Shown here in pieces: positions 1 to 55,741 of a stretch of 64,000 bases of DNA. Position 1 is the first letter of the stretch; each line of letters opens with the position of its first letter. Origin of the DNA: an uncultured Bdellovibrionales bacterium (lineage in GTDB: Bacteria; Patescibacteriota; Minisyncoccia; Moranbacterales; UBA1568); assembly GCA_964451495.1 (NCBI GenBank), contig CAYVHS010000003.1, positions 24,826-88,825 of the forward strand, given 5' to 3'. Below the pieces are notes generated by a model. It was not told the origin of the DNA. It did not search any database and worked only from the letters and a program-made list of their open reading frames with translations. Both the position numbers and the translations under genes were made by a program.

Positions 1-663
1 TTCGGGCGGCAATTTCACGATATCATGCAAAACACCATCGATACGGAAACGTACGAGCATATCTTTCTCTCGGGGCTCCAGATGTATATCAGAGGCACGA
101 TTTTGATACGCATACGAAATGAGCGTATCGACAATGCGAATAATCTGAGGATCACCCGCTACATCTTTTGTGTCCCCCGTATCTTTGAAACCGGATAATA
201 TGATATCCTCAAATGCCTGTGAAACCTCTTTCTTATAAAGCGCTAATGCGTTTTCCAAATCACGTTCCGAAGCCAAAGCGACCACAACTGGTAATCCGGT
301 CTTTTTCTCAAGAAAATTACGAATCTCCAAATCGTGAGGATTGGTCATGGCCACACGCAAGCCAGACGCATCTCTAGCAAAAGCGACGATTCGATGCTTC
401 TTCGCGACAACCTCGGGAACAATCTGCAATATTTCTTCGGGTATAGATTGCTGATTCAGTACGACAAAGGGCACCTGGAGAGCATCCGCCACAAGCTTCC
501 CGAGCTCTTCATCGGTCACCAGATTGTACCAGAGTACCGCCTGCGAAAACGATCCTCCTTCGGAACGAAAACGTTCATCGGCCATTTCGAGATCTTTTTC
601 CTCGACAACACCCGCGTCCAGCAGCAACGCTCTCAATTCGTCATGAGTGAGGACATCTTTCAT
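1..663 (-). CDS. Type II secretion / type IV pilus assembly ATPase (GspE/PilB family), N-terminal part; the gene continues beyond the window start
   Basis: Reverse-strand reading from ATG at 663 stays open to position 1: MKDVLTHDELRALLLDAGVVEEKDLEMADERF...ASDIHLEPREKDMLVRFRIDGVLHDIVKLPPE. A GSPII_E N-terminal-type domain is followed by the 'ASDIH(L/I)EP...RIDGVL' entry into the ATPase core. The same motif occurs in the 39219..42245 protein. It is missing from the supplied ORF track because its stop lies outside the window. Confidence 0.75.
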   Translation of the reverse strand, partial: MKDVLTHDELRALLLDAGVVEEKDLEMADERFRSEGGSFSQAVLWYNLVTDEELGKLVADALQVPFVVLNQQSIPEEILQIVPEVVAKKHRIVAFARDASGLRVAMTNPHDLEIRNFLEKKTGLPVVVALASERDLENALALYKKEVSQAFEDIILSGFKDTGDTKDVAGDPQIIRIVDTLISYAYQNRASDIHLEPREKDMLVRFRIDGVLHDIVKLPPE

Positions 664-33833: not shown

Positions 33834-33925
33834 ACAGACCTTCTTTAAAGCAATAATAAAGCCATCTATTGACAAAACGATATAAGTATGCTATCCTATA
33901 ATCCCAAAAAGATTGGAGTATACTC

Positions 33926-34159
33926 ATGTCGCCAGAGCAGGTAACAGAGACTCTCCGAAACAGAATCGTAGAATTCGGAGATAGATCATCCTATGTGCTT
34001 TTTGAGGAAGAGTTCCTTGTTGGAAAAGCACATGGCCTATTCACTGCAATCCAAGAGCCTGAGAATCGCAATGATGGAACCATCATCACCGCTGTGATTT
34101 TCGAAGGGAAAAAATTCCTCTGCGTGGAAGAAGATGGTACTACCTCTTTTTTCCATTGA
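33926..34159 (+). CDS. Small hypothetical protein
   Basis: 77 aa. GGAG lies 8 nt upstream of the ATG. No motif. Confidence 0.35.
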   Translation: MSPEQVTETLRNRIVEFGDRSSYVLFEEEFLVGKAHGLFTAIQEPENRNDGTIITAVIFEGKKFLCVEEDGTTSFFH

Positions 34160-37754: not shown

Positions 37755-37940
37755 ATCCTCATCCTAATGCAAAACATCATTTTTGGCTAGAGAAAAGCCT
37801 CAAAACCAGACGGAAGGGTAACTCACGCTACACACCTCTATTTGACACTCTATTTTTTCTCTGCTATTTTTGACTATCTCTCTCCCGTTATATTCCACCT
37901 TTCCGGTCCGAGATATTACCCTATTAGAAATTCTCCCGTT

Positions 37941-39092
37941 ATGTCATTTTCTCCTGTCCAGCAATTCCAAGAACTTCTCAAAAAAACCGTAGCCCCAATC
38001 ATTCTTTTACCGGCTTATCCGAGCCGAGATACCCTCGCCTCAGCTTTTGCGCTGGCGTTCTCGTTCAAGCAAATGGGCAAAGAGGCTCACATCGCTGGCG
38101 AGAATATCCTCAAAGACAAAGAGCTCGTTTCTTTCCTCGGCGAACCCGAAAACCTCCTCCCGACTATTACGGGAGCACGAGACTTTGTTCTCTCTTTCAA
38201 TACTGAACGCAACAAGATTACCAATGTCCGTTCTGAAACGATAGATAACGAGCTACGCATCTACCTCACACCAGAGCGCGGGTCTATCGACCCACGTGAT
38301 TTCTCTTTCATTCCCGCTCAATTCAAATTTGACCTCGCTATCATCATCGGAGCATCAGATAAAGAGTCTCTCGGGAAAATCTACGAGGACAACCCGGATA
38401 TCTTTTATGAAATCCCCATCATCAACATCGACAACCATCCCGATAACGAACTCTACGGGCAGATCAATCTCGTCGATATTACCGCTTCATCCAACGCAGA
38501 GATTCTCTCTGAAACATTCGAAAAAACTTTCCCAAATGTTCTCGATGAACGCGTCAGCGAAAGCCTGCTCACTGGCATCATCGCCGCAACCGAAAGTTTC
38601 CAGAAAAAAAATACGACTCCACAAGCACTTCAAATAGCCTCTCGGCTCATGGATCATGGTGCCGACCAACAGAAAATTGTTCGCTCTCTCTACAAAACAC
38701 AACCACTCCACCTTCTCAAACTCTGGGGACGCGTCATGGCCCAAGCCAAATGGAACGAAGAACTCAAGCTCATCTGGGCGCTTGTTTCTCTCGAGGATCT
38801 CATCCAGTCCCGTGCCCGCGTCGAGGATCTACCAGCTGTCCTAGAAAAAATCCACAGCAATTATTCCTCGGCCAACTACTTCATGATTCTTTCTCCAGAA
38901 ACTAATTCTCAGATAGGCGGTATCATCAAGTCTACATCAGCAGACAATCTTTCCCGTGTCTCCGAACGCATTGGTCATGGGGAAATCCAAGGAGATATCT
39001 TCCGATTCTCTCTGTCAGCCAATAGTCTCGACGAAGCAGAAGAACACGTCATCGCTCTGCTACAAAAAACCACTCCCCTAGTCTCAAAGTAA
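37941..39092 (+). CDS. DHH/DHHA1-like (NrnA-like) protein with degenerate catalytic motifs
   Basis: ORF trimmed to MSFSPVQQ... It has an overall NrnA-like layout, but the DHH motif appears as IDNHPDN and the N-terminal DxD motif as PSRD. Confidence 0.55.
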   Translation: MSFSPVQQFQELLKKTVAPIILLPAYPSRDTLASAFALAFSFKQMGKEAHIAGENILKDKELVSFLGEPENLLPTITGARDFVLSFNTERNKITNVRSETIDNELRIYLTPERGSIDPRDFSFIPAQFKFDLAIIIGASDKESLGKIYEDNPDIFYEIPIINIDNHPDNELYGQINLVDITASSNAEILSETFEKTFPNVLDERVSESLLTGIIAATESFQKKNTTPQALQIASRLMDHGADQQKIVRSLYKTQPLHLLKLWGRVMAQAKWNEELKLIWALVSLEDLIQSRARVEDLPAVLEKIHSNYSSANYFMILSPETNSQIGGIIKSTSADNLSRVSERIGHGEIQGDIFRFSLSANSLDEAEEHVIALLQKTTPLVSK

Positions 39093-39218: not shown

Positions 39219-42200
39219 ATGGTCAAGATTACTCACGGAGACATATCGCCCTCTGATGAAAAAAACAAACAAGCAGATGATCTCCTCCAAAAAATGCGCT
39301 CCGTCTCTATCGAAGAGACGGCTTCACGGTTGGCAGGCATGTGCGGTCTCCCTTATATTGATCTCGCTCTTTTCCCCGTTGAAGAAGAAAGCCTTTCGCT
39401 TATCAACGAGGCCGATGCGAGGCATCTAGGATTGGCTCTTTTCCAAAAAAAATCTACCAGGGCGAGCTTTGCCATCCTTGATCCAAACAACAAGGAAACT
39501 CTAGAATTTATCACAAAAGTCGCCCAAGAAAGGGGCTGGGAAGTAGAACTCTATGTCGTTTCGATACCGGCTCTCGAGGCAGCGTGGAAGACTTATTCCA
39601 AACATACGTTTATTGATAGCCTCGATCTCGTCCGCGTTTCACTCAAAGGCGATGATCTCGAAACATTTGATAAAAATTTTGGAGAACTTCTAGAATTAAA
39701 AGAAAATCATCGACTTAATACTTCTCGAGCCACAGAAATTATTCTCGCTGGAGCCAAGAAGCTTGACGCGAGTGATATTCATATCGAACCAGAAGAAGAG
39801 AGGGCTCGCCTGCGCTATCGTATCGATGGCGTACTCCAAGATATCGGCATGCTCCCGCTCGCCGTGTACCGACTCCTCCTGTCTCGTATCAAAATGATAG
39901 GCAAGATGCGCCTCAACGTCAGAGATAGAGCTCAGGATGGTCACTTCTTCGTCAATCTCGATGAAAAGCGCATCGATATCCGCGTCAACAGCATCCCCGG
40001 CAAATACGGCGAAAGCATCAACATGCGTCTTCTCTCAAGCGATGATGTTATTGCTGATATCGACAGTCTCGGTCTACGTGGTCTGGCCCGTGAAGAAATC
40101 CTCAAAGAAGTCGAGCGGCCTCACGGCATGATCCTCAATACCGGCCCGACCGGGTCTGGAAAAACAACTACTCTCTACACGCTCCTCCATCACATCAATC
40201 GTCCCGGGACAAAGATTATTACGGTCGAGGATCCAATCGAATATTCATTGCCCGGTATCGTCCAGACAGAAGTGTCCAAAGACAAATCATACACATTTGC
40301 TACCGCGCTCCGTGCCATCGTCCGTCAAGATCCAGATGTTCTCCTCGTCGGAGAAATCCGTGATGACGAAACTGCTGATATTGCCGTCAATGCCGCCCTC
40401 ACTGGGCATCTCGTCCTCTCAACGCTCCATGCTAATGGCGCTCCCGCTGCTGTTCCACGACTTATCGAGCTCGGTGTCAAACCATCGCTCATCACCGCCT
40501 CACTCAATATCATCATCGCTCAGCGCCTCGTCCGCGTGCTGTGTAAAAAATGTCGCACATCATACGAGCCAGCCAAATCGACATTCGATGTCATCACCAA
40601 GCTCATCACTATCATCTCTCCGAAAGCAAACGTGACACTGCCCAAAAAGATCGATGTCCTCTGGAAGGCCACGGGGTGCGCGGAATGCCACTTTACCGGC
40701 TACAAAGGACGTATCGGCATCTTCGAGATATTCTCTCTCTCCAAAGAAATCATCGAGATCATCAACAACATGGGTAATGAGCGTGAGATTCTCAAGGCCG
40801 CTCTCGAAGGCGGTATGGTCACCATGACACAAGACGGAATCCTCAAAACACTCGAGGGAATTACGACGCTCGATGAAATCTGGCGCGTCACCGACCAAGT
40901 AGATATGCTCAAAGAAATCTTCCTCGAACTCATGTCTGGTGATCTGCAGCGCACGCTCTTCATTCCAGAGAATCTCTCTTCTGATGTAGCGAAACACCTC
41001 TCTTCGCTCACCGAATTCTCACGCTATGCCAATACTATCGATTCACAGTTACGGTTTCAATCGATTTTCTCTGCGGCTATCGTCTCACGCGCTGGCGATA
41101 TCCATATCGAACCAGGAAACGAAACGTTCAGCGTCCGATTCCGCATCGATGGCATTCTTCAGAACGCTGCCACGTTTCCGATAAATGACTACCCGAGTCT
41201 CATCAGTGAGATAAAGACGCTCGTCGGACTCAAGATCGGTGAACGAGCTGGGGTGACCGATAAGCGTTTCTCTGTCACTCTCGAAAAGTCTCCCGATGCC
41301 GGCGTAAGCGAGAGGATAGATATCCGCCTCTCCCTTATCCCTGGAGGATTCGGCGAGACCATCGTTATGCGACTCCTCAATCAATCAGCCACAACGCTTG
41401 ATCTAGAAACACTCGATATCCGCAAACAAAACATCGAAAAAATTCTCGCCTCTATAAAAAAACCACACGGTATCATCCTTAATACTGGTCCTACTGGATC
41501 TGGAAAAACGACGACGCTCTACAGCACTCTCTCGCTACTCAATAAACCTGAAGTGAAAATCATCACCGTCGAAGATCCAATCGAATATCAGATGCAAGGT
41601 GTCCTCCAGACTCAAGTAAACGAAGCCGAGGGGTACACGTTCTCGACTGCTCTCCGCTCTCTCCTCCGTCAAAACCCAGATATCCTCATGATTGGCGAAA
41701 TCCGCGATGATGAGACAGCACAAATCGCCATCCAATCCGCCAATACGGGGCACCTCGTCCTCTCGACGCTCCATACCAATTCTGCAGCCGGCACCATTCC
41801 TCGTCTCATGAAAATGGGCGTTTCTGGTGATGACCTCGCCAATGCCGGAGGATCACTCATCGCGCAGCGACTCGTCCGCAGACTCTGCAAAGAATGCAAG
41901 GAATTGGCGCCTCTATCAGATGAGGATGCCCAGAAGATTACACAAACCCTCGCATCTCTTTCAGAAAAAGCAGGTGTCACTCTACCCACAGACAAACAGA
42001 CAGCATGGATACACAAAGGCTGCCCTGTCTGCCATGGCACCGGCTATTCCGGCCAACTAGTCCTCTCCGAAGTGATTCCGCTCGATAATGATATCAAAGA
42101 CCTCATCGCCAGAGGAGCCCTCACTCACGAGATCGAAGAAAAAGCTCTCGAAAATGGGATGATCACCATCGCGCAAGATGGTGTGCTCGCAGTACTCGAG

Positions 42201-42245
42201 GGACGCACCACTCTCGAGGAAGTAAAGCGCGTAACTGATTTCTAA
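39219..42245 (+). CDS. GspE/PilB-family secretion ATPase with two tandem complete ATPase cores (1008 aa)
   Basis: An N-terminal GSPII_E_N-like domain, then two repeats each with ASDIHIEP...RIDGVLQ, Walker A LNTGPTGSGKTTTLY, Asp box, Walker B/His box (LVGEIRD...LVLSTLH) and a tetra-Cys motif (CKKC...CAEC and CKEC...CPVC). Confidence 0.85.
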   Translation: MVKITHGDISPSDEKNKQADDLLQKMRSVSIEETASRLAGMCGLPYIDLALFPVEEESLSLINEADARHLGLALFQKKSTRASFAILDPNNKETLEFITKVAQERGWEVELYVVSIPALEAAWKTYSKHTFIDSLDLVRVSLKGDDLETFDKNFGELLELKENHRLNTSRATEIILAGAKKLDASDIHIEPEEERARLRYRIDGVLQDIGMLPLAVYRLLLSRIKMIGKMRLNVRDRAQDGHFFVNLDEKRIDIRVNSIPGKYGESINMRLLSSDDVIADIDSLGLRGLAREEILKEVERPHGMILNTGPTGSGKTTTLYTLLHHINRPGTKIITVEDPIEYSLPGIVQTEVSKDKSYTFATALRAIVRQDPDVLLVGEIRDDETADIAVNAALTGHLVLSTLHANGAPAAVPRLIELGVKPSLITASLNIIIAQRLVRVLCKKCRTSYEPAKSTFDVITKLITIISPKANVTLPKKIDVLWKATGCAECHFTGYKGRIGIFEIFSLSKEIIEIINNMGNEREILKAALEGGMVTMTQDGILKTLEGITTLDEIWRVTDQVDMLKEIFLELMSGDLQRTLFIPENLSSDVAKHLSSLTEFSRYANTIDSQLRFQSIFSAAIVSRAGDIHIEPGNETFSVRFRIDGILQNAATFPINDYPSLISEIKTLVGLKIGERAGVTDKRFSVTLEKSPDAGVSERIDIRLSLIPGGFGETIVMRLLNQSATTLDLETLDIRKQNIEKILASIKKPHGIILNTGPTGSGKTTTLYSTLSLLNKPEVKIITVEDPIEYQMQGVLQTQVNEAEGYTFSTALRSLLRQNPDILMIGEIRDDETAQIAIQSANTGHLVLSTLHTNSAAGTIPRLMKMGVSGDDLANAGGSLIAQRLVRRLCKECKELAPLSDEDAQKITQTLASLSEKAGVTLPTDKQTAWIHKGCPVCHGTGYSGQLVLSEVIPLDNDIKDLIARGALTHEIEEKALENGMITIAQDGVLAVLEGRTTLEEVKRVTDF

Positions 42246-42260
42246 ACTACTATAAAAAAC

Positions 42261-42290
42261 AAAAAAAGACTTCCTAGGAAGTCTTTTTTC
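42261..42290 (+). terminator. Intrinsic (bidirectional-capable) terminator after the GspE gene
   Basis: aaaaaaagacttcctaggaagtcttttttc, a 20-nt self-complementary core with flanking A- and T-runs. Confidence 0.7.
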
Positions 42291-42299
42291 TCATCTTTC

Positions 42300-42480
42300 T
42301 GCTTCACCTGTAGACAAACCTCAAGCATAGGAGCTCGCGGAAAGGAACAGCGTCGAGGTATAGCGCAGCCGAAACCACCCTACCCGATCTTGACAGACAG
42401 TTCCCGTGATTGAGGACAAAAGATAGGAGTCCCCAATTGTCTACATGTGAAGCAGCCCTAAAAGCTAGGGGTTCTTTTTT
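42300..42480 (+). ncRNA. Candidate structured small RNA (~180 nt) closed by a 17-bp terminal stem and ending in an intrinsic terminator; identity unresolved (SRP-RNA-like or 6S-like long hairpin)
   Basis: The 5' arm gcttcacctgtagacaa (42301..42317) pairs with ttgtctacatgtgaagc (42436..42452) with 1 mismatch. Nested internal pairings exist (cctcaa/ttgagg, ggaac/gttcc). The 3' end has ccctaaaagctaggg + gttctttttt (42453..42480). The element is wedged between two terminators and 150 nt upstream of ruvB, so it is not a simple 5'UTR. Confidence 0.35.
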
Positions 42481-42635
42481 AAAACGACCCTTGATAATAG
42501 CATGGCTTTGTTTATTTGTCAAGAGGTGTTACAATATAGATACAGAGGTCTTACTTCTTCCTTTATTTGAGCCTATAATAACACAAGGACCGCTGTGTCT
42601 ATGTGACCGTATAACCGAAACTTTCACCCACTTGT

Positions 42636-43646
42636 ATGATCAATTCTGATATCCAACCACTCGATGAACAAACCTTCGACAACACTCTCCGTCCCCAGGT
42701 TTTCGGCGAATACATCGGGCAAGAAAAAATCAAGCGCCATCTGGATATATTCATCCGAGCCGCCAAAAAACGAGAGGAGAGTATCGACCATGTACTCCTC
42801 TATGGACCGGCGGGTCTCGGCAAGACAACACTGGCTCATATCATCGCTAAAGAAATGGGCGTGAACATCAAAGTGACATCGGGCCCAGCCATCGAACGCG
42901 TCGGTGATCTCGGATCTATCCTGACCAATCTAGAAAACGGCGATGTCCTCTTCATCGATGAGATTCACCGACTCAATAAGATGATCGAGGAAGTCCTCTA
43001 TCCAGCGATGGAAGACTACAAGCTCGATATCATCATCGGCAAAGGGCCCGCCGCACGGACCATCCAGCTCGATCTCCCCCACTTCACCCTCATCGGTGCT
43101 ACGACGCGCCTCGGTTCGCTCTCCAATCCACTCCGCAACCGTTTCGGGTCAACTCACCGTCTCGAATTTTATACCCCTGAAGAAATCGAAAAAATAGTGA
43201 AGCGCTCCTCTGGTATCCTCGATATCGGTCTCGATGAGAGCGGCGCTCAAAAGATAGCCCGCTCAAGTCGTCAAACCCCCCGTGTCGCCAATAGGATCCT
43301 CAAACGCGTCCGCGATTACGCCCAAATCAAGAACGCCTCCACTATCACCGGAGGAATAGCCGGGGAAGCCCTTTCTCTCTACGACATCGACATGCTCGGC
43401 CTCGAGCCGACCGACCGACACATTCTCCGCACCATCATCGAGAAATTCCGTGGTGGGCCGGCGGGCATCCAGGCTATAGCCGCCGTCACGGGAGAAGAAA
43501 TCCAAACCATCGAAGATGTCTACGAGCCATACCTCATCCAACTCGGGTTCCTCGCCCGTACCCCCCGTGGACGAGTGGTCACAGAAGCAGGATTTGTTCA
43601 CCTCGGCCTCGACATTCCCGATGGCCATCAGAATAAACTCCTCTAG
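42636..43646 (+). CDS. ruvB: Holliday junction branch-migration ATPase RuvB
   Basis: 336 aa. [16 protein letters not shown], Walker [25 protein letters not shown]. Confidence 0.9.
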
Positions 43647-49344: not shown

Positions 49345-52008
49345 TTAGGGGGTGGTCACAGTAATGCTCTTCTGGTCGCTCACTTTGTTCCCATTATCAT
49401 CTTCCACTTCCACTTTAACCGAAAGAGAAGACTTGTCCGATGGAACGGAGTAACTCACAGAATATGATTCTGATTCGCCTGAACCAACCTCGGATCCCTC
49501 GACAGAGTACTTCACACTTTTTACTCCATAGGGGGCATCAATATTAGCACGGAGAGTAATAGAGGATGATGCCTCCGCGCTCCCTGGCACAGAGAGACTC
49601 ACTTCTGGCATATTCCCCTTAAAATCACTTGCCTTACAATCATCCCTCGGTGGAGCCGCCATGGTTTTAGACCCTTTCTTCTGACTCTTATACCAATCCT
49701 TTACCCCCTCTTCCCAATTTTTATACTGGGAATTACTCTCTGGCTTATCTGGAATTGGCCCGCGCGGATCGTCTGTCGACACATAATGCAAGATATCATG
49801 CGGGCTGATAAAATCTTTCTTTTCCGTATCGCTATCCGAACAATATTTATTAGCGAGACAATAGGTATTTTTTTCGCCAGGAATTTTACAAACTTTCAAA
49901 TTCTCCTCTTTCTCAAGTTTTCCAGCGAGCATAGGTTTATTGGTTTTACCATCACCGTCACCGATCTCATCATCAGGATTATATTTCGGAAATTCTTCAA
50001 CCGCATAATTTGCTAACGCCTTATCAAGAAACGCCCGCCAGATGGGCGCGGCAACATTCACACCATCCGCTCCCGCTATCATAGACGAGTTATCATTATT
50101 CCCCGCCCACACACCAACAGCGAGTGATGGAGTATACCCAATAGTCCATCCGTCTCGGAATTCATTTGTGGTGCCCGTCTTCGCTGCCACAGGACGATTG
50201 TCGAATCGAAGTGGACTATTCTCACCAAATACCCACGCACGATTATCATTGTTCGAAAGAATTGAATCGAGCATTGCTACATACTTTTCATCCACAACAC
50301 GCTCACCAGCATCTACCTTGAACTCTTCGAGCACTCCACCCTTAGCATCCTCAATCTTAAGAACAGAGGCTCCACTCCGTTTAATTCCACCTGTCGCAAG
50401 TGTACTAAAGGCGTTTACATGATCGAGAAGCTTCACATCCCCACCACCGAGCACAAGTGAGAGCCCTAATTGATCCAAATTATTCAAACCAGAAATTCCC
50501 AGGTTCTTAGCTAGAGTGACGGCGTCTTTTACACCGACAAGGTACAACATCTTCACAGCGGGTACATTAAGCGATCCACCGAGCGCCTTCATCACTGATA
50601 CGGGCCCATGAAACTCCCCCGTATAGTTCTGGGGTTCATAGCTTTTTCCTTCTGCGGTCTCAAACTGCGTCTTCACATCATAGAGCATCGTTTCTGGTAA
50701 ATACCCTTTCGTAAAAGCCGATAGATACACATATGGCTTAAATGATGATCCTGGTTGCTGAAGAGATGTGGCCACATTGAAGTTTGGTTCAAATACACAA
50801 GATTTTCCAGAAACACAATTGGCTGGCTCTGGTGTACCAAAATAATCCTTGGATCCAACCATAGCGAGGATCTGTCCAGTTTTCGGATCCATCGCGACCA
50901 GCGCAGCATTCGCTGATTTCCACTTCTTATTTTTTTCCACTCCTTCACGCACTGCCTGCTCAGCAGCCTGCTGTTTATCCCAATCAAGCGTAGTCGTCAC
51001 TTTGAAACCACTCTGTTCCACCGCCTGGTCTCCATACTTCTGCTGTAAATAATCCTTAATAAACATGACAAAATGCGGCGCAGCAATGATATTTTTTTGT
51101 GGTTGAATCTTGTCGAGTGTATTAGTATCCAAAGCCTCATTTGCTTGATCTTCAGAGATATACCCCAGACTCTTCATTTGCTTCAAAGCAAAGGCTTTGC
51201 GACCAATAAGGGCATCGCGATGAGACCCATAGGGAGAATAATACGCCGTGGCCTGAGGAAGGGCCGCGATAAGGGCCGCTTCATCTAGAGAGAGTTCCCG
51301 AGCTGGCTTACCAAAAAAAGTCTGTGCAGCAGCTTCTACACCATATGCATTTGACCCATAAGGAATTTCATTGAGATACATTGCCAAGATTTCATCTTTG
51401 GAAAACTTTGTTTCCATCTCGAGCGAAAGAATTACTTCTTTGATTTTTCTCGTCAAAGTCTTTTCATTCGAGAGAAGTGAGTTTTTCACAAACTGCTGAG
51501 TAATAGTCGATCCACCCTGCGCTTTACCAAATTGTGTAATATCTTTGAATATAGAACGAGCGATTGAGGTGAGTTTAATACCATGATGTGAATAAAAATC
51601 CTGGTCCTCGAGACTAATTGTGGCATATTTCACAACATCAGGCATATCTGAAAACGGTATAATAGTGCGCTTCTCCTCTCCATGTACTTCATATAGAAGA
51701 TGCACTCCAGTTCGATCGTATATTTTCGTTGATTCTGGTATGAAACGAGTATTGACACTCCCTGGACTTGGAAGATCTTTAGCAAAAAATGCAAAAACAC
51801 CAATAATTACAATAATACCCACAAAAGAAAGACTAAGCATCCCTTTCCAAAGAAGGGGCCAAATTTTATTTTTCTGCTTTGTTTCCGGAAGAAATCTCCG
51901 CTTTTTAAGAAGAAATGCCATAAAAATACCAAAAGGATACACACTCATTATACACCATACAAAAGCCACCTCACACAAAACACCCCCTTCCCTTGTTTTT
52001 ATTATCAA
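49345..52008 (-). CDS. Class A penicillin-binding protein (transglycosylase + transpeptidase) with a C-terminal Ser-rich repeat extension
   Basis: 887 aa. GT51 motifs (EDQDFYSHHGI, GGSTITQQ), a transpeptidase SxxK (SSFKPYVYL) and KTGT. The start may be an internal Met. Confidence 0.85.
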   Translation of the reverse strand: MIIKTREGGVLCEVAFVWCIMSVYPFGIFMAFLLKKRRFLPETKQKNKIWPLLWKGMLSLSFVGIIVIIGVFAFFAKDLPSPGSVNTRFIPESTKIYDRTGVHLLYEVHGEEKRTIIPFSDMPDVVKYATISLEDQDFYSHHGIKLTSIARSIFKDITQFGKAQGGSTITQQFVKNSLLSNEKTLTRKIKEVILSLEMETKFSKDEILAMYLNEIPYGSNAYGVEAAAQTFFGKPARELSLDEAALIAALPQATAYYSPYGSHRDALIGRKAFALKQMKSLGYISEDQANEALDTNTLDKIQPQKNIIAAPHFVMFIKDYLQQKYGDQAVEQSGFKVTTTLDWDKQQAAEQAVREGVEKNKKWKSANAALVAMDPKTGQILAMVGSKDYFGTPEPANCVSGKSCVFEPNFNVATSLQQPGSSFKPYVYLSAFTKGYLPETMLYDVKTQFETAEGKSYEPQNYTGEFHGPVSVMKALGGSLNVPAVKMLYLVGVKDAVTLAKNLGISGLNNLDQLGLSLVLGGGDVKLLDHVNAFSTLATGGIKRSGASVLKIEDAKGGVLEEFKVDAGERVVDEKYVAMLDSILSNNDNRAWVFGENSPLRFDNRPVAAKTGTTNEFRDGWTIGYTPSLAVGVWAGNNDNSSMIAGADGVNVAAPIWRAFLDKALANYAVEEFPKYNPDDEIGDGDGKTNKPMLAGKLEKEENLKVCKIPGEKNTYCLANKYCSDSDTEKKDFISPHDILHYVSTDDPRGPIPDKPESNSQYKNWEEGVKDWYKSQKKGSKTMAAPPRDDCKASDFKGNMPEVSLSVPGSAEASSSITLRANIDAPYGVKSVKYSVEGSEVGSGESESYSVSYSVPSDKSSLSVKVEVEDDNGNKVSDQKSITVTTP

Positions 52009-52074
52009 ACCCTACCTAATCATGCGAAGGAGGGTGGATAATGACCACCATCTCAACTCGAGGTGTATACCGTG

Positions 52075-52362
52075 CTATTGAGAAATTTTCACCTCCACCA
52101 CACCTTCACATCCCAGTACAGTATTAATTCTTTCTCGTATACGGTCTCTTTGGAGCCAGACTTCACTCGACCACAAAGAACTCCTCGGTGTTAAAAACAG
52201 TTTTTTCTCTTTATAGAAGCTCGGTATAATATTTTCTCCTCCACGCACACCATATTCCTCAATCAAAACCCGCTTACAGACATAAAAAACTGTCTTCTCA
52301 TCAAGAACTTCTGGGTTAAGAACTGTTTTCTTTAGAGGAAGGAGCTCTTTTAATGTCCGCAT
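52075..52362 (-). CDS. DUF721 (DciA-like) protein
   Basis: 95 aa. ...LFLTPRSSLWSSEVWLQRDRIRERINTVLG...VVEVKI matches the DUF721 pattern. It is positioned next to dnaN as in many genomes. Confidence 0.6.
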   Translation of the reverse strand: MRTLKELLPLKKTVLNPEVLDEKTVFYVCKRVLIEEYGVRGGENIIPSFYKEKKLFLTPRSSLWSSEVWLQRDRIRERINTVLGCEGVVEVKISQ

Positions 52363-52559
52363 ACCCAGTAATGAAACTTCGACAATATTCTCTTTGTTAT
52401 TGTCGATAATTAAGCTAATATATTATTTATCAACTTCTTTTTTCATATCACTCAAGCACTCATCAAAGTTCTACTACTGGACATATTTCTATTACTACAC
52501 AAAGTGAAAATATATATTCACTTTTGAGCAAATACTTGTAAAATCAGTTAAACAAACCA

Positions 52560-53708
52560 TTATTTCTTGATTGGCATTATAATATAAAGATATTCATTTT
52601 GAACACTATTATTTTTACTAACCATTTTCAGCGCGGCGGGAGTTGTCCCTGTATTCGCACAAAAAAGCATCTTTTCACTTGAAAGAGCATTCACCCCCTC
52701 TAAAACATACCGTGGATTAAATACTATTCTAAGCGGCGTCGCTTCTTGTAAAAATTCTCCCTCAAGCACAGTTTTATTCTCACCTATCTCTTGTGATGAA
52801 GAGGTGACTGTACAGGATTTTGCTTGTGGATCAAAAGAAAGAGTGATTTCATTAGCATCATACGAAGAAAAAGCACTCGCTATTTTTATTGCTCGCTGAA
52901 AGGCCTCTTTATTAAAAACACATTGCAAAGAAAAAGATTGTGGAATTATCTGCTTATAATCAGGATATTTTCCATTAATTACACGTGAAATTATCTGCAC
53001 TCCATCAATTTCAAAAAAAATCTGATTTTCTTCAAGCGCAATCTTTACCTCATTACTCTCAGGGGTAATAACACGATTAATCTCCTGTAATGTACCACTT
53101 GGAAGAATAAGTGATGGATTCTGCTCTAAAAAGTCTTCATATCGGCTCTTATGTTCTAAAAATGGAATCACTTCTTCCGCAAGACGAAAACTATCTGTTG
53201 CTGCTAAATGAAGAGCATCTTTTAAAAAGAATATATTTACTCCAGTTAATTCAAGACGAGCCTCATTTAAACTCACACAAAATAAAAGCCTAGAAAGAGC
53301 GCTTTTTAATTCTTGAGCTGGGAAAGAAAATAAATATTCCTTTTTATATTGTGGAATAATAGGAAAATCCTTTCCATCTAAGCCTTTTATCCTCATTTGA
53401 TGAGAAGTGCTTGATATTTTTAATGTTTGATTATCAGATTCAAGCTCTAAAACATCACCACTAGGAAGATTATGGATAAAATTACTCAATAATTTAGCTG
53501 GGATAGCAATTTTCCCTTCCTTTTCTATTTTTGCCCCTATATATGATATAACACCAATTTCTAGATTTGTTGCAGAAAGTTTTAATCTTCCATTTTCTGT
53601 TTCTAGAAGAAAGTTACTTAGAATAGGTAGTGTAGATTGTTTTCCTACTACTCGCTCGAGATATGTGAGGGATTTTGCAAGATTTTCTTGGGTACAAATA
53701 AGTTTCAT
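52560..53708 (-). CDS. dnaN: DNA polymerase III beta sliding clamp
   Basis: 382 aa. MKLICTQENLAKSLTYLERVVGKQSTLPILSNFLLETENGRLKLSATNLEIGV. Confidence 0.9.
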   Translation of the reverse strand: MKLICTQENLAKSLTYLERVVGKQSTLPILSNFLLETENGRLKLSATNLEIGVISYIGAKIEKEGKIAIPAKLLSNFIHNLPSGDVLELESDNQTLKISSTSHQMRIKGLDGKDFPIIPQYKKEYLFSFPAQELKSALSRLLFCVSLNEARLELTGVNIFFLKDALHLAATDSFRLAEEVIPFLEHKSRYEDFLEQNPSLILPSGTLQEINRVITPESNEVKIALEENQIFFEIDGVQIISRVINGKYPDYKQIIPQSFSLQCVFNKEAFQRAIKIASAFSSYDANEITLSFDPQAKSCTVTSSSQEIGENKTVLEGEFLQEATPLRIVFNPRYVLEGVNALSSEKMLFCANTGTTPAALKMVSKNNSVQNEYLYIIMPIKK

Positions 53709-53992
53709 AGAAATATAGTGATGAATAAACCCACTCTTAGTAATAGAATCTTTTTTTTAAAAAATATAAATACTTTTATTATGATTAGTGTGGTGGATAT
53801 CTGGATAAGTTCTATTTTTGTTTTAGGAGGGGCCTTAAAAGAGAATAAGCTTTTGTATAAAAAAGAGCAAATGTGTTTATTTTGAGTATAATTTTAAAGG
53901 AGAATTTTTGTTTGGGGTTTTATTCACTAAATATGTTTTTCTATACAGTGTTTATTAACCATATTTCTCGACTTATACAGACTTATACAGGG
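53709..53992. other. dnaA-dnaN intergenic AT-rich region with DnaA-box-like sites and a 10-bp tandem repeat (candidate oriC element/DUE)
   Basis: gtgtggtggatatctggataagttc contains two TGGATA(A)-core boxes. acttatacag occurs twice in tandem at 53961..53980. The region is very AT-rich. Confidence 0.4.
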
Positions 53993-55399
53993 TTAGTTGT
54001 AATAGAGACGCTCTTTTAATGTAGAGAGCTCTTCTTTGAGTCGTATATTTGTTTCTTTCCCCTTATTTATTTTTTCAAAAGCATGGAGGGTGGTGGTGTG
54101 ATCGCGGCCGCCGAGAATTTCTCCGATAGTAGAAAATGGAGTTTGAAGTTCGCTACGGAGTATAAACATCATTACTTGGCGGGGATGGGAAATTTCCTTT
54201 TTCCGACCCTTTTTGAGGAGATCTTCTCTTGTCACGGTATAAAACTCCATAATAACTCGGAATATATCATCTACCTGGAGTGTTTTTTTGTTGTTTTCAA
54301 TGAGTTGAGAAAGAATTTTTTCAGTATTTTCAATTGTGGGAGGTATTTTATGGAATTCACAAAAGGCAATAACTCTATTAAGGGCCCCTTCAAGTTCGCG
54401 AATATTTTGTGAGATATTTTCTGCGATATAGCGAATGGACGGGGTGTCTATATGAAAACCCTTTTCAGTAATTTTTGCCTCAAGGATGGCGATTCTTGTT
54501 TCAACATTAGGACGGCTAATGTCGGTGATCATACCCCCTTCAAAACGTGAACGGAGACGTTCTTCTAGGGTGGGAATCGCTTTGGGAGGGCGGTCGCTTG
54601 ATATAACTATTTGTTTATTGAGCTGGTAGAGAGCGTTAAATATGTGGAAGAATTCGTTTTGGGTCTTTTCTCGGCCAGAAAGAAATTGAATATCATCAAT
54701 AATGAGGAGATCCATCTGTTGGTAGTATTCTTTAAATTTATCAATCTTCTGATTTTTAATAGAATCAACCAGTTCTGTGGTAAATCGCTCAGAATTAATA
54801 TATTTTATGCGTTTTTCTGGGGAGTTCTTCATCACTTCATTCCCAATAGATTGGAGGAGATGAGTTTTTCCGAGGCCTACTCCTCCATAAATAAAGAGTG
54901 GGTTATAAGCCATTCCAAGATTTTGTGAAACAGCAAAGCAGGCAGCTTTCGCTAACTCGTTATTTTCAGCAACGATAAAATTTTCAAATGTGTAGCGATT
55001 GTTAAGGTTTGTTTCATGGAAAATAGGTGTAGAGGGAGCCGCTGCGGTAAAAAATGGCTTTTCTATAATCTTTTTTCTAACAAAACCGTTTGTTGATGGG
55101 GCTTGGACGGCGTCAATATTTTTTATAGAATCAACTGTTTGAGTGGTGGGTTTTTCTGGAGAAATGATGCATCGAATCTCTTGAATTTCTGGATGAAAGC
55201 CCTTGAGTGCTTTAAGAATATAGATATTATACTTGTTTTCAAGCCACTCTTTGGCAAATCCATTTGGTACTCCAATAGTGACACTATTGTCTTGGTTACT
55301 CAAAATACTGGTATTTTTAAACCAGGTAATGAAGTTTGCTTTGGAGATAGAGAGTTCGATTTGGCCCAAAACAGCCCTCCATAACTCGTCGTTTGTCAT
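53993..55399 (-). CDS. dnaA: Chromosomal replication initiator DnaA
   Basis: 468 aa. Walker A GGVGLGKTHLLQ, LLIDDIQFLSG (box VII region), and a C-terminal DNA-binding domain ...HTTTLHAFEKI. Confidence 0.95.
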   Translation of the reverse strand: MTNDELWRAVLGQIELSISKANFITWFKNTSILSNQDNSVTIGVPNGFAKEWLENKYNIYILKALKGFHPEIQEIRCIISPEKPTTQTVDSIKNIDAVQAPSTNGFVRKKIIEKPFFTAAAPSTPIFHETNLNNRYTFENFIVAENNELAKAACFAVSQNLGMAYNPLFIYGGVGLGKTHLLQSIGNEVMKNSPEKRIKYINSERFTTELVDSIKNQKIDKFKEYYQQMDLLIIDDIQFLSGREKTQNEFFHIFNALYQLNKQIVISSDRPPKAIPTLEERLRSRFEGGMITDISRPNVETRIAILEAKITEKGFHIDTPSIRYIAENISQNIRELEGALNRVIAFCEFHKIPPTIENTEKILSQLIENNKKTLQVDDIFRVIMEFYTVTREDLLKKGRKKEISHPRQVMMFILRSELQTPFSTIGEILGGRDHTTTLHAFEKINKGKETNIRLKEELSTLKERLYYN

Positions 55400-55741
55400 A
55401 AGGGGAGAAAGGTTATCAACAATGAAACTTATTATAGCACGTGAAAAAAGAAGATACGAGTAAAAAAAGAAACAAAGTGGATAAATGGTGTATAAGTATC
55501 GAATATCCTTTAAAAACTAACTGTTACTCTTGCTAAAAACAAAGAAGTCGGCTATACTACTCTAAAGCTTCAAAGGGTTAATTGGATAACACAATTGAAT
55601 AGGGGATGTTATAATTCCTTTTCTGTTCTCTGTTTTTCCAAAACACCTTTTAAAACGGTGTTTTTCTTTATTTGAAGCCAAAAACAGTGCCACTCTAATT
55701 TATTAAACGCGGATAGGCATGGCCGCAGAATAGTATATATT
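55400..55741. other. dnaA/rpsA divergent intergenic region with DnaA-box-like sequences (candidate oriC / dnaA promoter region)
   Basis: TTATCAACA (55403..55411), TTATCCACT as reverse complement (55467..55475), TGGATAA core at 55574..55581. A hairpin aaaacaccttttaaaacggtgttttt lies at 55630..55656. Confidence 0.4.

Follow-up and report, generated by a model that had tools for sequence, protein, structure and literature searches.

A probable structured non-coding RNA gene opposite ruvB, outside the known RNA families, in Moranbacteria and other Parcubacteria

The DNA analysed here, which we call the window, is a stretch of 64,000 nucleotides (nt) from an uncultured Bdellovibrionales bacterium placed by GTDB in the Patescibacteriota (Minisyncoccia, Moranbacterales, UBA1568; GenBank assembly GCA_964451495.1, contig CAYVHS010000003.1, positions 24,826 to 88,825 of the forward strand). 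Between a gene for a T2SSE (GspE-like) ATPase, whose product matches Pfam T2SSE in two stretches (E = 3.7e-224), and ruvB, whose ATG at 42636 lies 156 nt past position 42480, is a segment with complementary ends that form a long outer helix (Table 1). We conclude that this segment very probably belongs to an independent, single-copy, minus-strand gene for a structured non-coding RNA. An initial annotation, made from the letters of the window alone, had proposed a discrete structured small RNA in this spacer, and the comparative analysis reported here supports that proposal, while moving the RNA to the other strand and away from the families to which it had been likened. The long hairpin with paired ends that had been described is present. 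Its arms, the two P1 strands of Table 1, measure 19 nt each, are 95% complementary and have 119 nt between them, and the arm sequence has no further copy in the window (2 matches with no more than 3 mismatches, against 0.01 expected). When folding was calculated, as had been suggested, the element proved to fold beyond chance, at -58 kcal/mol (z = -2.8) on the plus strand and -72.5 kcal/mol (z = -4.0) on the minus strand; for the whole predicted minus-strand transcript, which spans about 42488 to about 42252, the value is -89.3 kcal/mol (z = -5.4). The segment upstream of ruvB is conserved at the nucleotide level in about 40 related genomes, and searches with blastn and nhmmer locate this conservation at 42299-42458 and 42498-42531 in essentially all Moranbacteria-type loci, again upstream of ruvB.

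Table 1. Window coordinates, RNA numbering and strand of the flanking genes, transcription signals and structural elements; RNA nt n is window position 42456-n.
Feature	Window position	RNA nt	Strand	Description
T2SSE ATPase gene	39219..42245		+	Convergent with the RNA gene; 1008 amino acids (aa), two tandem T2SSE domains (GspE/PilB-like)
ruvB	42636..43646		+	Divergent from the RNA gene; Pfam RuvB_N, AAA_lid_4, RuvB_C
Promoter	42494..42522		-	-35 TTGACA at 42522-42517; 17-nt spacer ending in TGC at 42502-42500 (extended -10); -10 TATTAT at 42499-42494
Predicted transcription start	42486..42488		-	Conserved GUC 6-8 nt past the -10; placed by promoter geometry and the onset of conservation at (G/U)UC(G/A)
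5' leader	42456..42485		-	A-rich stretch, then small hairpin CCCUAGCUUUUAGGG (42470-42456)
Conserved core	42299..42455	1-157	-	157 nt
P1 5' strand	42437..42455	1-19	-	Pairs 1-9/149-157 and 11-19/139-147; A.G mismatch at nt 10/148
P1 3' strand	42299..42317	139-157	-	
P2 hairpin	42410..42436	20-46	-	8-base-pair (bp) stem 20-27/39-46; 11-nt loop UCCUAUCUUUU
P3 arm	42343..42405	51-113	-	
P3a		51-56/108-113	-	86-95% of cells paired
P3b		62-64/102-104	-	Covaries after re-registering
P3 asymmetric internal loop		65-70; 100-101	-	5' side AAGAUC, 3' side UC; consensus [A/C]AGAYN opposite UC
P3c		71-76/93-99	-	A97 bulged; P3c/d 96% of cells paired
P3d		78-82/87-91	-	UUCG cap; P3c/d 96% of cells paired
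P4 hairpin	42319..42340	116-137	-	6-bp stem 116-121/132-137, G.A mismatch in this copy; 10-nt loop GCUCCUAUGC
Intrinsic terminator	42252..42290		-	13-bp hairpin at 42290-42261, then U-run; bidirectional, common to the convergent T2SSE gene

That the RNA is transcribed from the minus strand, opposite ruvB, we regard as settled by the comparison of sequences. A promoter scan of the minus strand identified TTGACA-17-TGcTATTAT, a match to the consensus at 11 of 12 positions that also carries the TG extension; perfect matches to this strong promoter pattern number only 3 in the 64-kb window, the RNA promoter included. The arrangement TTGACA-17-TGn-TAnnnT is kept in all 14 close loci, TTGACA followed after exactly 17 nt by TAnnnT stands upstream of the core in 124 of 126 genome and metagenome loci, and the distant homologues have the same promoter in 16 of 16 cases, 10-71 nt from the core. 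When the 14 close loci are aligned on the minus strand the promoter is invariant, and a conserved GUCGCUU begins about 7 nt after the -10 element. The other two perfect matches to TTGACA-N14-TGCTAnnnT in the window are at 33869-33897 and 37842-37870 (+). The former precedes a 77-aa open reading frame (ORF; 33926-34159) with a GGAG ribosome-binding site, the latter overlaps the annotated start of ORF 37842-39092, and it appears that strong promoters of this organism have the extended -10 'TGCTA' as their standard form.

Base pairing in the homologues points to the same strand. Among 129 distinct sequences G.U was found in 1062 pair cells and A.C in 211, and the share of cells that pair is 89.4% for the minus strand but 76.6% for the plus strand; the minus strand is assigned because of this excess of G.U, as each conserved G.U pair would turn into a C.A mismatch if the plus strand were transcribed. 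The initial annotation had instead read the RNA from the plus strand, where the element would be a small RNA, or a 5' leader or attenuator of ruvB, lying between two terminators and ending at 42453-42480. The plus strand does form a long hairpin, as the energy given above indicates, and a scan of that strand does find a terminator-like stem and T-run at 42454-42480, with ruvB following 156 nt on; the stem, however, is variable in relatives and often occurs without the T-run, and it is better described as the 5' leader hairpin of a minus-strand RNA (42456-42470), preceded on that strand by an A-run, than as the 3' terminator for which it had been taken. The promoter scan found no plus-strand promoter between the GspE terminator and the element, and the conserved promoter and the G.U bias are both opposite ruvB, where a leader or attenuator would be on the strand of the gene that it regulates. 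We therefore consider transcription of a functional plus-strand RNA very improbable. The bidirectional terminator at 42261-42290, which had been placed upstream of the RNA, becomes its own 3' terminator.

The predicted primary transcript would accordingly be about 235 nt long, running from about 42488 to about 42252 through the leader hairpin, the 157-nt core and the bidirectional terminator. The leader varies between loci in sequence and in length (22-115 nt), and after the core each of the 14 close loci has a hairpin and T-run of its own that differs from the others; a terminator is found within 100 nt on the RNA strand in 104 of 132 loci, and is mostly bidirectional. A further helix, P0, pairing the 5' end with the 3' trailer, was convincing by eye in L001, L004, L007, L008 and L123, and was rejected as having no general significance; in some clades a leader hairpin abutting P1 is found in its place.

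Read as RNA with nt 1 at window position 42455, the core is CUGCUUCACAUGUAGACAAUUGGGGACUCCUAUCUUUUGUCCUCAAUCACGGGAACUGUCUGUCAAGAUCGGGUAGGGUGGUUUCGGCUGCGCUAUACCUCGACGCUGUUCCUUUCCGCGAGCUCCUAUGCUUGAGGUUUGUCUACAGGUGAAGCAG, and it folds into a four-way junction of helices P1-P4. On a plain MAFFT alignment of 35 sequences, RNAalifold recovered P1, P2, P3c/d and part of P4, and 26 of the 41 pairs that it predicted carry compensatory changes. The structure drawn by hand served to build a covariance model, which was used to realign 53 genome-derived matches (set A3). The paired fraction of cells in this set is 89.6%, where slid controls give 42-46%; double changes occur in 47 of 52 pairs, and none of 500 shuffles attains any of the observed measures. 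In an independent set of 98 metagenome copies (set A4), 89.2% of cells are paired against 41-48% when slid, and 36 of 52 pairs show compensatory changes. Covariation in homologous intergenic regions, which had been proposed as a check, is thus present in both sets. The gene appears to possess what is expected of a stand-alone structured non-coding RNA gene, namely its own promoter, its own terminator, a lack of coding function and a covarying structure.

Support is spread over the helices. P1 shows changes on both sides in 18 of 18 pairs, with 90.7% of cells paired (set A3), and its inner half (UGUAGACAA/UUGUCUACA) is nearly invariant while the outer half is variable yet paired. Pairing in P2 reaches 99.5% of cells in set A3 and 100% in set A4, with double changes in 8 of 8 and 5 of 8 pairs respectively, and that in P4 is 89-90%, with double changes in 6 of 6 pairs. 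Full-length homologues with a P2 nearly all share an identical stretch of its loop, CUAUCUUUU (nt 30-38, window 42426-42418), the exception being L016, which has a large insertion after CUAUCUUU. P3b seemed unsupported in a first register (31-42% of cells paired), a view that was dropped as the covariance-model alignment had been shifted by one position; in the raw segments it covaries as GUC/GAC, AUC/GAU, GCC/GGC and ACC/GGU, with a recurrent C.A. A K-turn in the P3 internal loop is ruled out, as G102 and A103 covary as Watson-Crick partners in P3b.

The nested helices that had been drawn inside the hairpin fared differently. The ggaac/gttcc helix is present and is the conserved helix P3a; gtcgag/cttgac is also found, though relatives retain no more than its first three pairs (P3b). 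The cctcaa/ttgagg helix exists in this copy, but as a conserved pairing it did not hold up, since 62-67% of homologue cells pair in this way and 99.5-100% in the competing P2. It pairs the 3' strand of P2 with the 3' strand of P4 (RNA nt 41-46/132-137, window 42415-42410/42324-42319), and with 62-67% kept, above a background of about 45%, it could still form as an alternative conformation.

Family-wide invariants are the inner P1 (UGNAG.../...CUNCA), the GG/CC that opens P3c, the [A/C]AG... opposite UC, a G.U/G-C step under the apex, and CCUCG. The P4 loop has a UCCYA-like motif that is common to the Staskawiczbacteria (UCCCAGA). The apex tetraloop is interchangeable between UUCG, UCCG and GCAA, or carries long insertions, and P4 and the P3a-P3b interval are also sites of insertion. 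Copies of 210-285 nt (L015, L016, L019, L023, L035, L040, L108, L111, L113, L118, L141, L176 and L189) carry large insertions, for which the defined sites are the P3a-P3b interval, the apex of P3d, the loop of P4 and, in L016 alone, that of P2. A conserved core with a variable periphery is the pattern typical of structural RNAs.

The same data bear on the idea that the element acts as DNA, whether as a miniature inverted-repeat element, a remnant of an insertion sequence (IS) or a large bidirectional terminator, or that it encodes a small protein. Its 19-nt terminal inverted repeats would suit a mobile element, and a 72-aa minus-strand ORF (42304..42522) does span it. Compensatory changes and G.U bias are properties of an RNA, and the dispersed copies and variable sites of such repeats or insertion sequences are replaced here by a single copy in the 64-kb window and one fixed syntenic position in more than 150 loci; a mobile element was rejected because the window has no second copy and viral contigs gave no covariance-model match. 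The ORF was rejected as a coding sequence because it begins in the -35 hexamer, because core lengths fall in all three modulo-3 classes, and because the RNA strand is without an open frame in 57 of 127 cores. Together these explanations have next to no probability.

The family is both widespread and fixed in its position. Covariance-model matches were found in all 43 Moranbacteria-type genome loci and in 98 metagenome loci, every match being on the strand opposite ruvB. By nhmmer and the covariance model, complete Moranbacteria-type copies score 79.7-166 bits, the divergent metagenome locus L190 scores 48 bits, and copies from other Patescibacteria score 28-68 bits (36-68 bits in L047, L043, L064, L044, L071 and L073). 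All 8 Staskawiczbacteria loci that were fetched via RuvB homologues have the RNA, likewise opposite ruvB, and a pattern scan of metagenome contigs yielded 120 loci of which about 105 carry it. Wherever flanks are available the order is T2SSE ATPase gene, RNA on the opposite strand, ruvB, with the RNA about 90-770 nt upstream of ruvB and one RNA per locus. Among non-CPR ruvB loci (CPR, candidate phyla radiation) there were no convincing covariance-model matches. RuvB itself has its relatives, among species-representative genomes, in metagenome-assembled genomes (MAGs) of Candidatus Moranbacteria (70-87% identity), next in other Patescibacteria and then in unrelated phyla. Moranbacteria and Staskawiczbacteria are separate candidate phyla inside the Parcubacteria group in the NCBI taxonomy, and, as far as these sequences tell, the family is vertically inherited at a fixed locus across the Parcubacteria group of the ultra-small CPR bacteria.

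In the Staskawiczbacteria the RNA has a shorter form of 125 nt, which is without P2 and has a three-way junction of P1, P3 and P4. P1 is about 25 bp long there and, since a U-run directly follows it, probably doubles as terminator stem. Compensatory changes within this clade are found in P1, P3c and P4. Two Kuenenbacteria-like loci gave weak hits of 12-16 bits (L045, 2256-2363 (-); L046, 2252-2359 (-)), flanked by genes for a DUF5652 protein and an M18 aminopeptidase and lying 1.6 kb upstream of ruvB. They have a TTGACA-17-TGaTATGAT promoter, a P1 helix, a P3-like hairpin with GGUUUCGACU at its apex, and a terminator, and may represent a very distant, minimal version of the family. An occurrence of CUAUCUUU in the L045 leader was set aside as coincidence, as it is not conserved in the sister locus L046.

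The surroundings of the gene in the window are as follows. After ruvB come a gene for a bPH_2-domain protein and then yebC. The tandem two-domain fusion of the T2SSE ATPase recurs in many Moranbacteria-type loci, and the ATPase in the same position in Staskawiczbacteria has a single domain and about 440 aa. Candidate promoters of ruvB on the plus strand are at 42527-42536 (extended -10 TGtTACAAT) and 42575-42580 (TATAAT), back to back with the RNA promoter, and no obvious Shine-Dalgarno sequence precedes the ATG of ruvB. Further along, dnaA (53993-55399 (-)) and dnaN (52560-53708 (-)) lie at the minimum of the cumulative GC skew, in the interval 52000-55700, where G+C falls to 0.33 and 52-54 kb is an AT-rich stretch. 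Because of the skew minimum and the positions of these two genes the replication origin is placed near dnaA, and the window thus probably contains the origin region, in or next to the spacer between dnaA and the gene for an S1 protein (about 55400-55740). About 13 kb separate the RNA gene from the origin, and in its arm the leading strand, to judge by the cumulative GC skew, is the minus strand.

These features would suit an RNA that is abundant, stable and trans-acting, given its near-consensus sigma-70 promoter, its position some 13 kb from the origin and its skew-implied place on the leading strand. We tentatively favour, at somewhat less than even chances, a function as the compact scaffold of a ribonucleoprotein (RNP) for an RNA of this kind. 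In such a scaffold the P2 loop (5'-AUCUU-3') may dock on the complementary P3 internal loop (5'-AAGAU-3') and give a compact fold; the P3 internal loop, the G.U/G-C step and the invariant inner P1 may together present a surface for recognition by protein; and the long, perfect outer P1 may protect the ends or serve as a processing stem for RNase III. The last proposal is made because a duplex of 19-25 bp is long enough for RNase III and the outer half is variable yet paired, and it leans on what is known of RNase III and of the maturation of Bacillus subtilis scRNA, whose precursors are trimmed by RNase III and offer a possible analogy for P1. As to docking, all P2-bearing RNAs have AGA in the P3 loop and 12 of 12 P2-less RNAs have AG[C/U], and L044 combines a loop UUCUU with AGAUA. 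Docking is only suggestive, since the nucleotides concerned are invariant within clades.

Two other functional readings draw on the same loops. As a trans-acting base-pairing small RNA, the RNA would use the P2 loop CUAUCUUUU as its seed, perhaps with the P4 loop CUCCUAUG, which is anti-Shine-Dalgarno-like, to address purine-rich mRNA targets; the near-identity of the 9-nt P2 loop stretch and the independent promoter and terminator would fit such a role. However, P2 is missing from Staskawiczbacteria-type homologues that keep P1, P3 and P4, the widest conservation is in P1 and the P3 internal loop and not in the seed, a search of the neighbouring genes of 43 loci turned up no complementary site that is conserved, AAAGATAG shows no clear enrichment (7 matches in the window against 3 expected), and so elaborate a covarying architecture with peripheral insertions is unusual for seed-type small RNAs. 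This makes a base-pairing function unlikely. A ribozyme or ligand-sensing RNA would account for the multi-helix junction, for the putative contact between a loop and an internal loop, reminiscent of the long-range docking in riboswitch aptamers and small ribozymes, and for the gathering of invariant nucleotides in loops and junctions; there is, though, no gene downstream on the same strand to be regulated, P1 is too long and too stable for a switching helix, and no ribozyme or riboswitch model matched, so that we hold this to be a good deal less probable than base pairing.

Several points weigh against the interpretation of the element as an independent gene for a stable RNP scaffold. The transcription start, the 3' end, the abundance and the stability of the RNA rest on sequence signals. 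The terminators are mostly bidirectional and also end the convergent T2SSE gene; they are without power on their own to fix the strand and were rejected as strand evidence. In the window, P0 is not significant (-5.5 kcal/mol, z = -0.4). Alignments fitted to a covariance model are biased toward the structure of that model. The co-occurrence that suggests docking amounts to only two or three evolutionary events among invariant nucleotides, and a protein partner, a target or a ligand is postulated only.

The CPR, or Patescibacteria, make up a large share of bacterial diversity, and to our knowledge almost nothing is known about their non-coding RNAs. A new RNA class with about 50 covarying pairs, a multi-way junction, invariant loop nucleotides and class-wide spread is rare at this size, and most RNAs of such complexity have proved to be RNP scaffolds, ribozymes or regulators of polymerase. 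It is conceivable, though rather unlikely in our estimation, that this one is the RNA subunit of a new ribonucleoprotein, or a catalytic RNA, throughout the Parcubacteria, and so an extra class of 'housekeeping' stable RNA in the CPR. If that were true, it might compensate for functions lost in minimal genomes, as opposed to being a lineage-specific regulator or a diverged 6S RNA. With a defined gene, promoter and structure model the RNA offers a handle for study, and its covariance model can be used in the annotation of MAGs; among the relatives, few of which are cultivable, L013 carries the label Minisyncoccota, and Minisyncoccus archaeiphilus is available in co-culture (PMC12281837). The case also illustrates that a strand call made from one sequence can err even when the hairpin is real.

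The RNA is an uncatalogued family to which no known family or functional class can be assigned. Rfam 15 was scanned with the whole window at the gathering threshold and with 42200-42700 and 11 homologous loci at E<=10, and no family was found at the element or at the RNA coordinates of the 11 homologous loci, the only hits being terminator look-alikes and chance hits. ARAGORN found no transfer RNA or transfer-messenger RNA at the locus, and full-text literature searches on non-coding RNAs in Patescibacteria brought up no account of this one. The suggestion that it belongs to the signal recognition particle (SRP) or 6S family did not survive the Rfam scan, which gave no SRP, 6S or other match at E<=10. 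For the SRP RNA (4.5S, ffs; RF00169, RF01854) the attraction had been the long-hairpin shape of a stable RNA and a string, GGAAAGGAACAGCG, that loosely resembles GGAAGCAGC. The string is present, at 42341-42354, but on the non-transcribed strand; the transcribed strand is without the helix-8 motifs, having neither a GNAR tetraloop, in place of which the apex is an exchangeable, insertion-tolerant UUCG, UCCG or GCAA, nor the symmetric loop of GGAA and AGCA, and no SRP model matched either strand. That this is the SRP RNA of these bacteria is hardly credible.

With 6S RNA (ssrS; RF00013, RF01685) the element, an RNA of 125-235 nt, has in common that it is stand-alone, single-copy and lineage-wide, with a strong promoter and with its ends paired in a long closing helix. 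Were it a divergent member of that type, it would stand in for an open promoter and sequester sigma-70 RNA polymerase until the RNA is freed by synthesis of product RNA (pRNA), perhaps on the P2 loop as template; the inner P1 strand UAGACA does resemble a -35 hexamer, and no 6S RNA is described for this group in the literature that was searched. In contrast to 6S RNA, it has no central single-stranded bubble, since its junction consists of stable covarying hairpins (P2 paired in 99.5-100% and P4 in about 90% of cells) with joining strands of 1-4 nt, and in Staskawiczbacteria no more than 3-4 nt are left unpaired on the 5' side of the junction. The 19-25 bp of P1 run without interruption where 6S helices are bulged, and neither the 6S (RF00013) nor the 6S-Flavo (RF01685) model matched at gathering threshold in the window or at E<=10 in 42200-42700 and the 11 homologous loci. 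We think a 6S-type RNA improbable, about as much so as a ribozyme or ligand sensor; were it a very diverged one, the RNA would not be categorically new.

The resemblance to the bacterial Y RNAs (YrlA/Yrn1, partners of Rsr/Ro) is one of topology only, in that a long terminal stem closes a cloverleaf-like junction and the RNA is presumed to be a protein scaffold. Unlike them it has no evident T-loop or D-loop mimicry, nothing tRNA-like by ARAGORN, no Rfam match and no rsr in the locus, where the neighbours are those named above; an apex loop resembling GGUUUCGGCU is replaceable by GCAA or by insertions. A further analogy is with the orphan structured RNAs of single lineages, such as the raiA motif RNA, Bacteroidales-1 and Chloroflexi-1 of the Breaker/Weinberg motif collections, which have their own promoter and terminator and are each found in one lineage. 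The present RNA likewise combines its own promoter and terminator with one large lineage, a complex junction and strong covariation. Those RNAs are all in Rfam and none of them matched, so that neither sequence nor structure links it to any of them; the RNA described here belongs to the CPR, within the Parcubacteria, and is locked to one genomic position, opposite ruvB.

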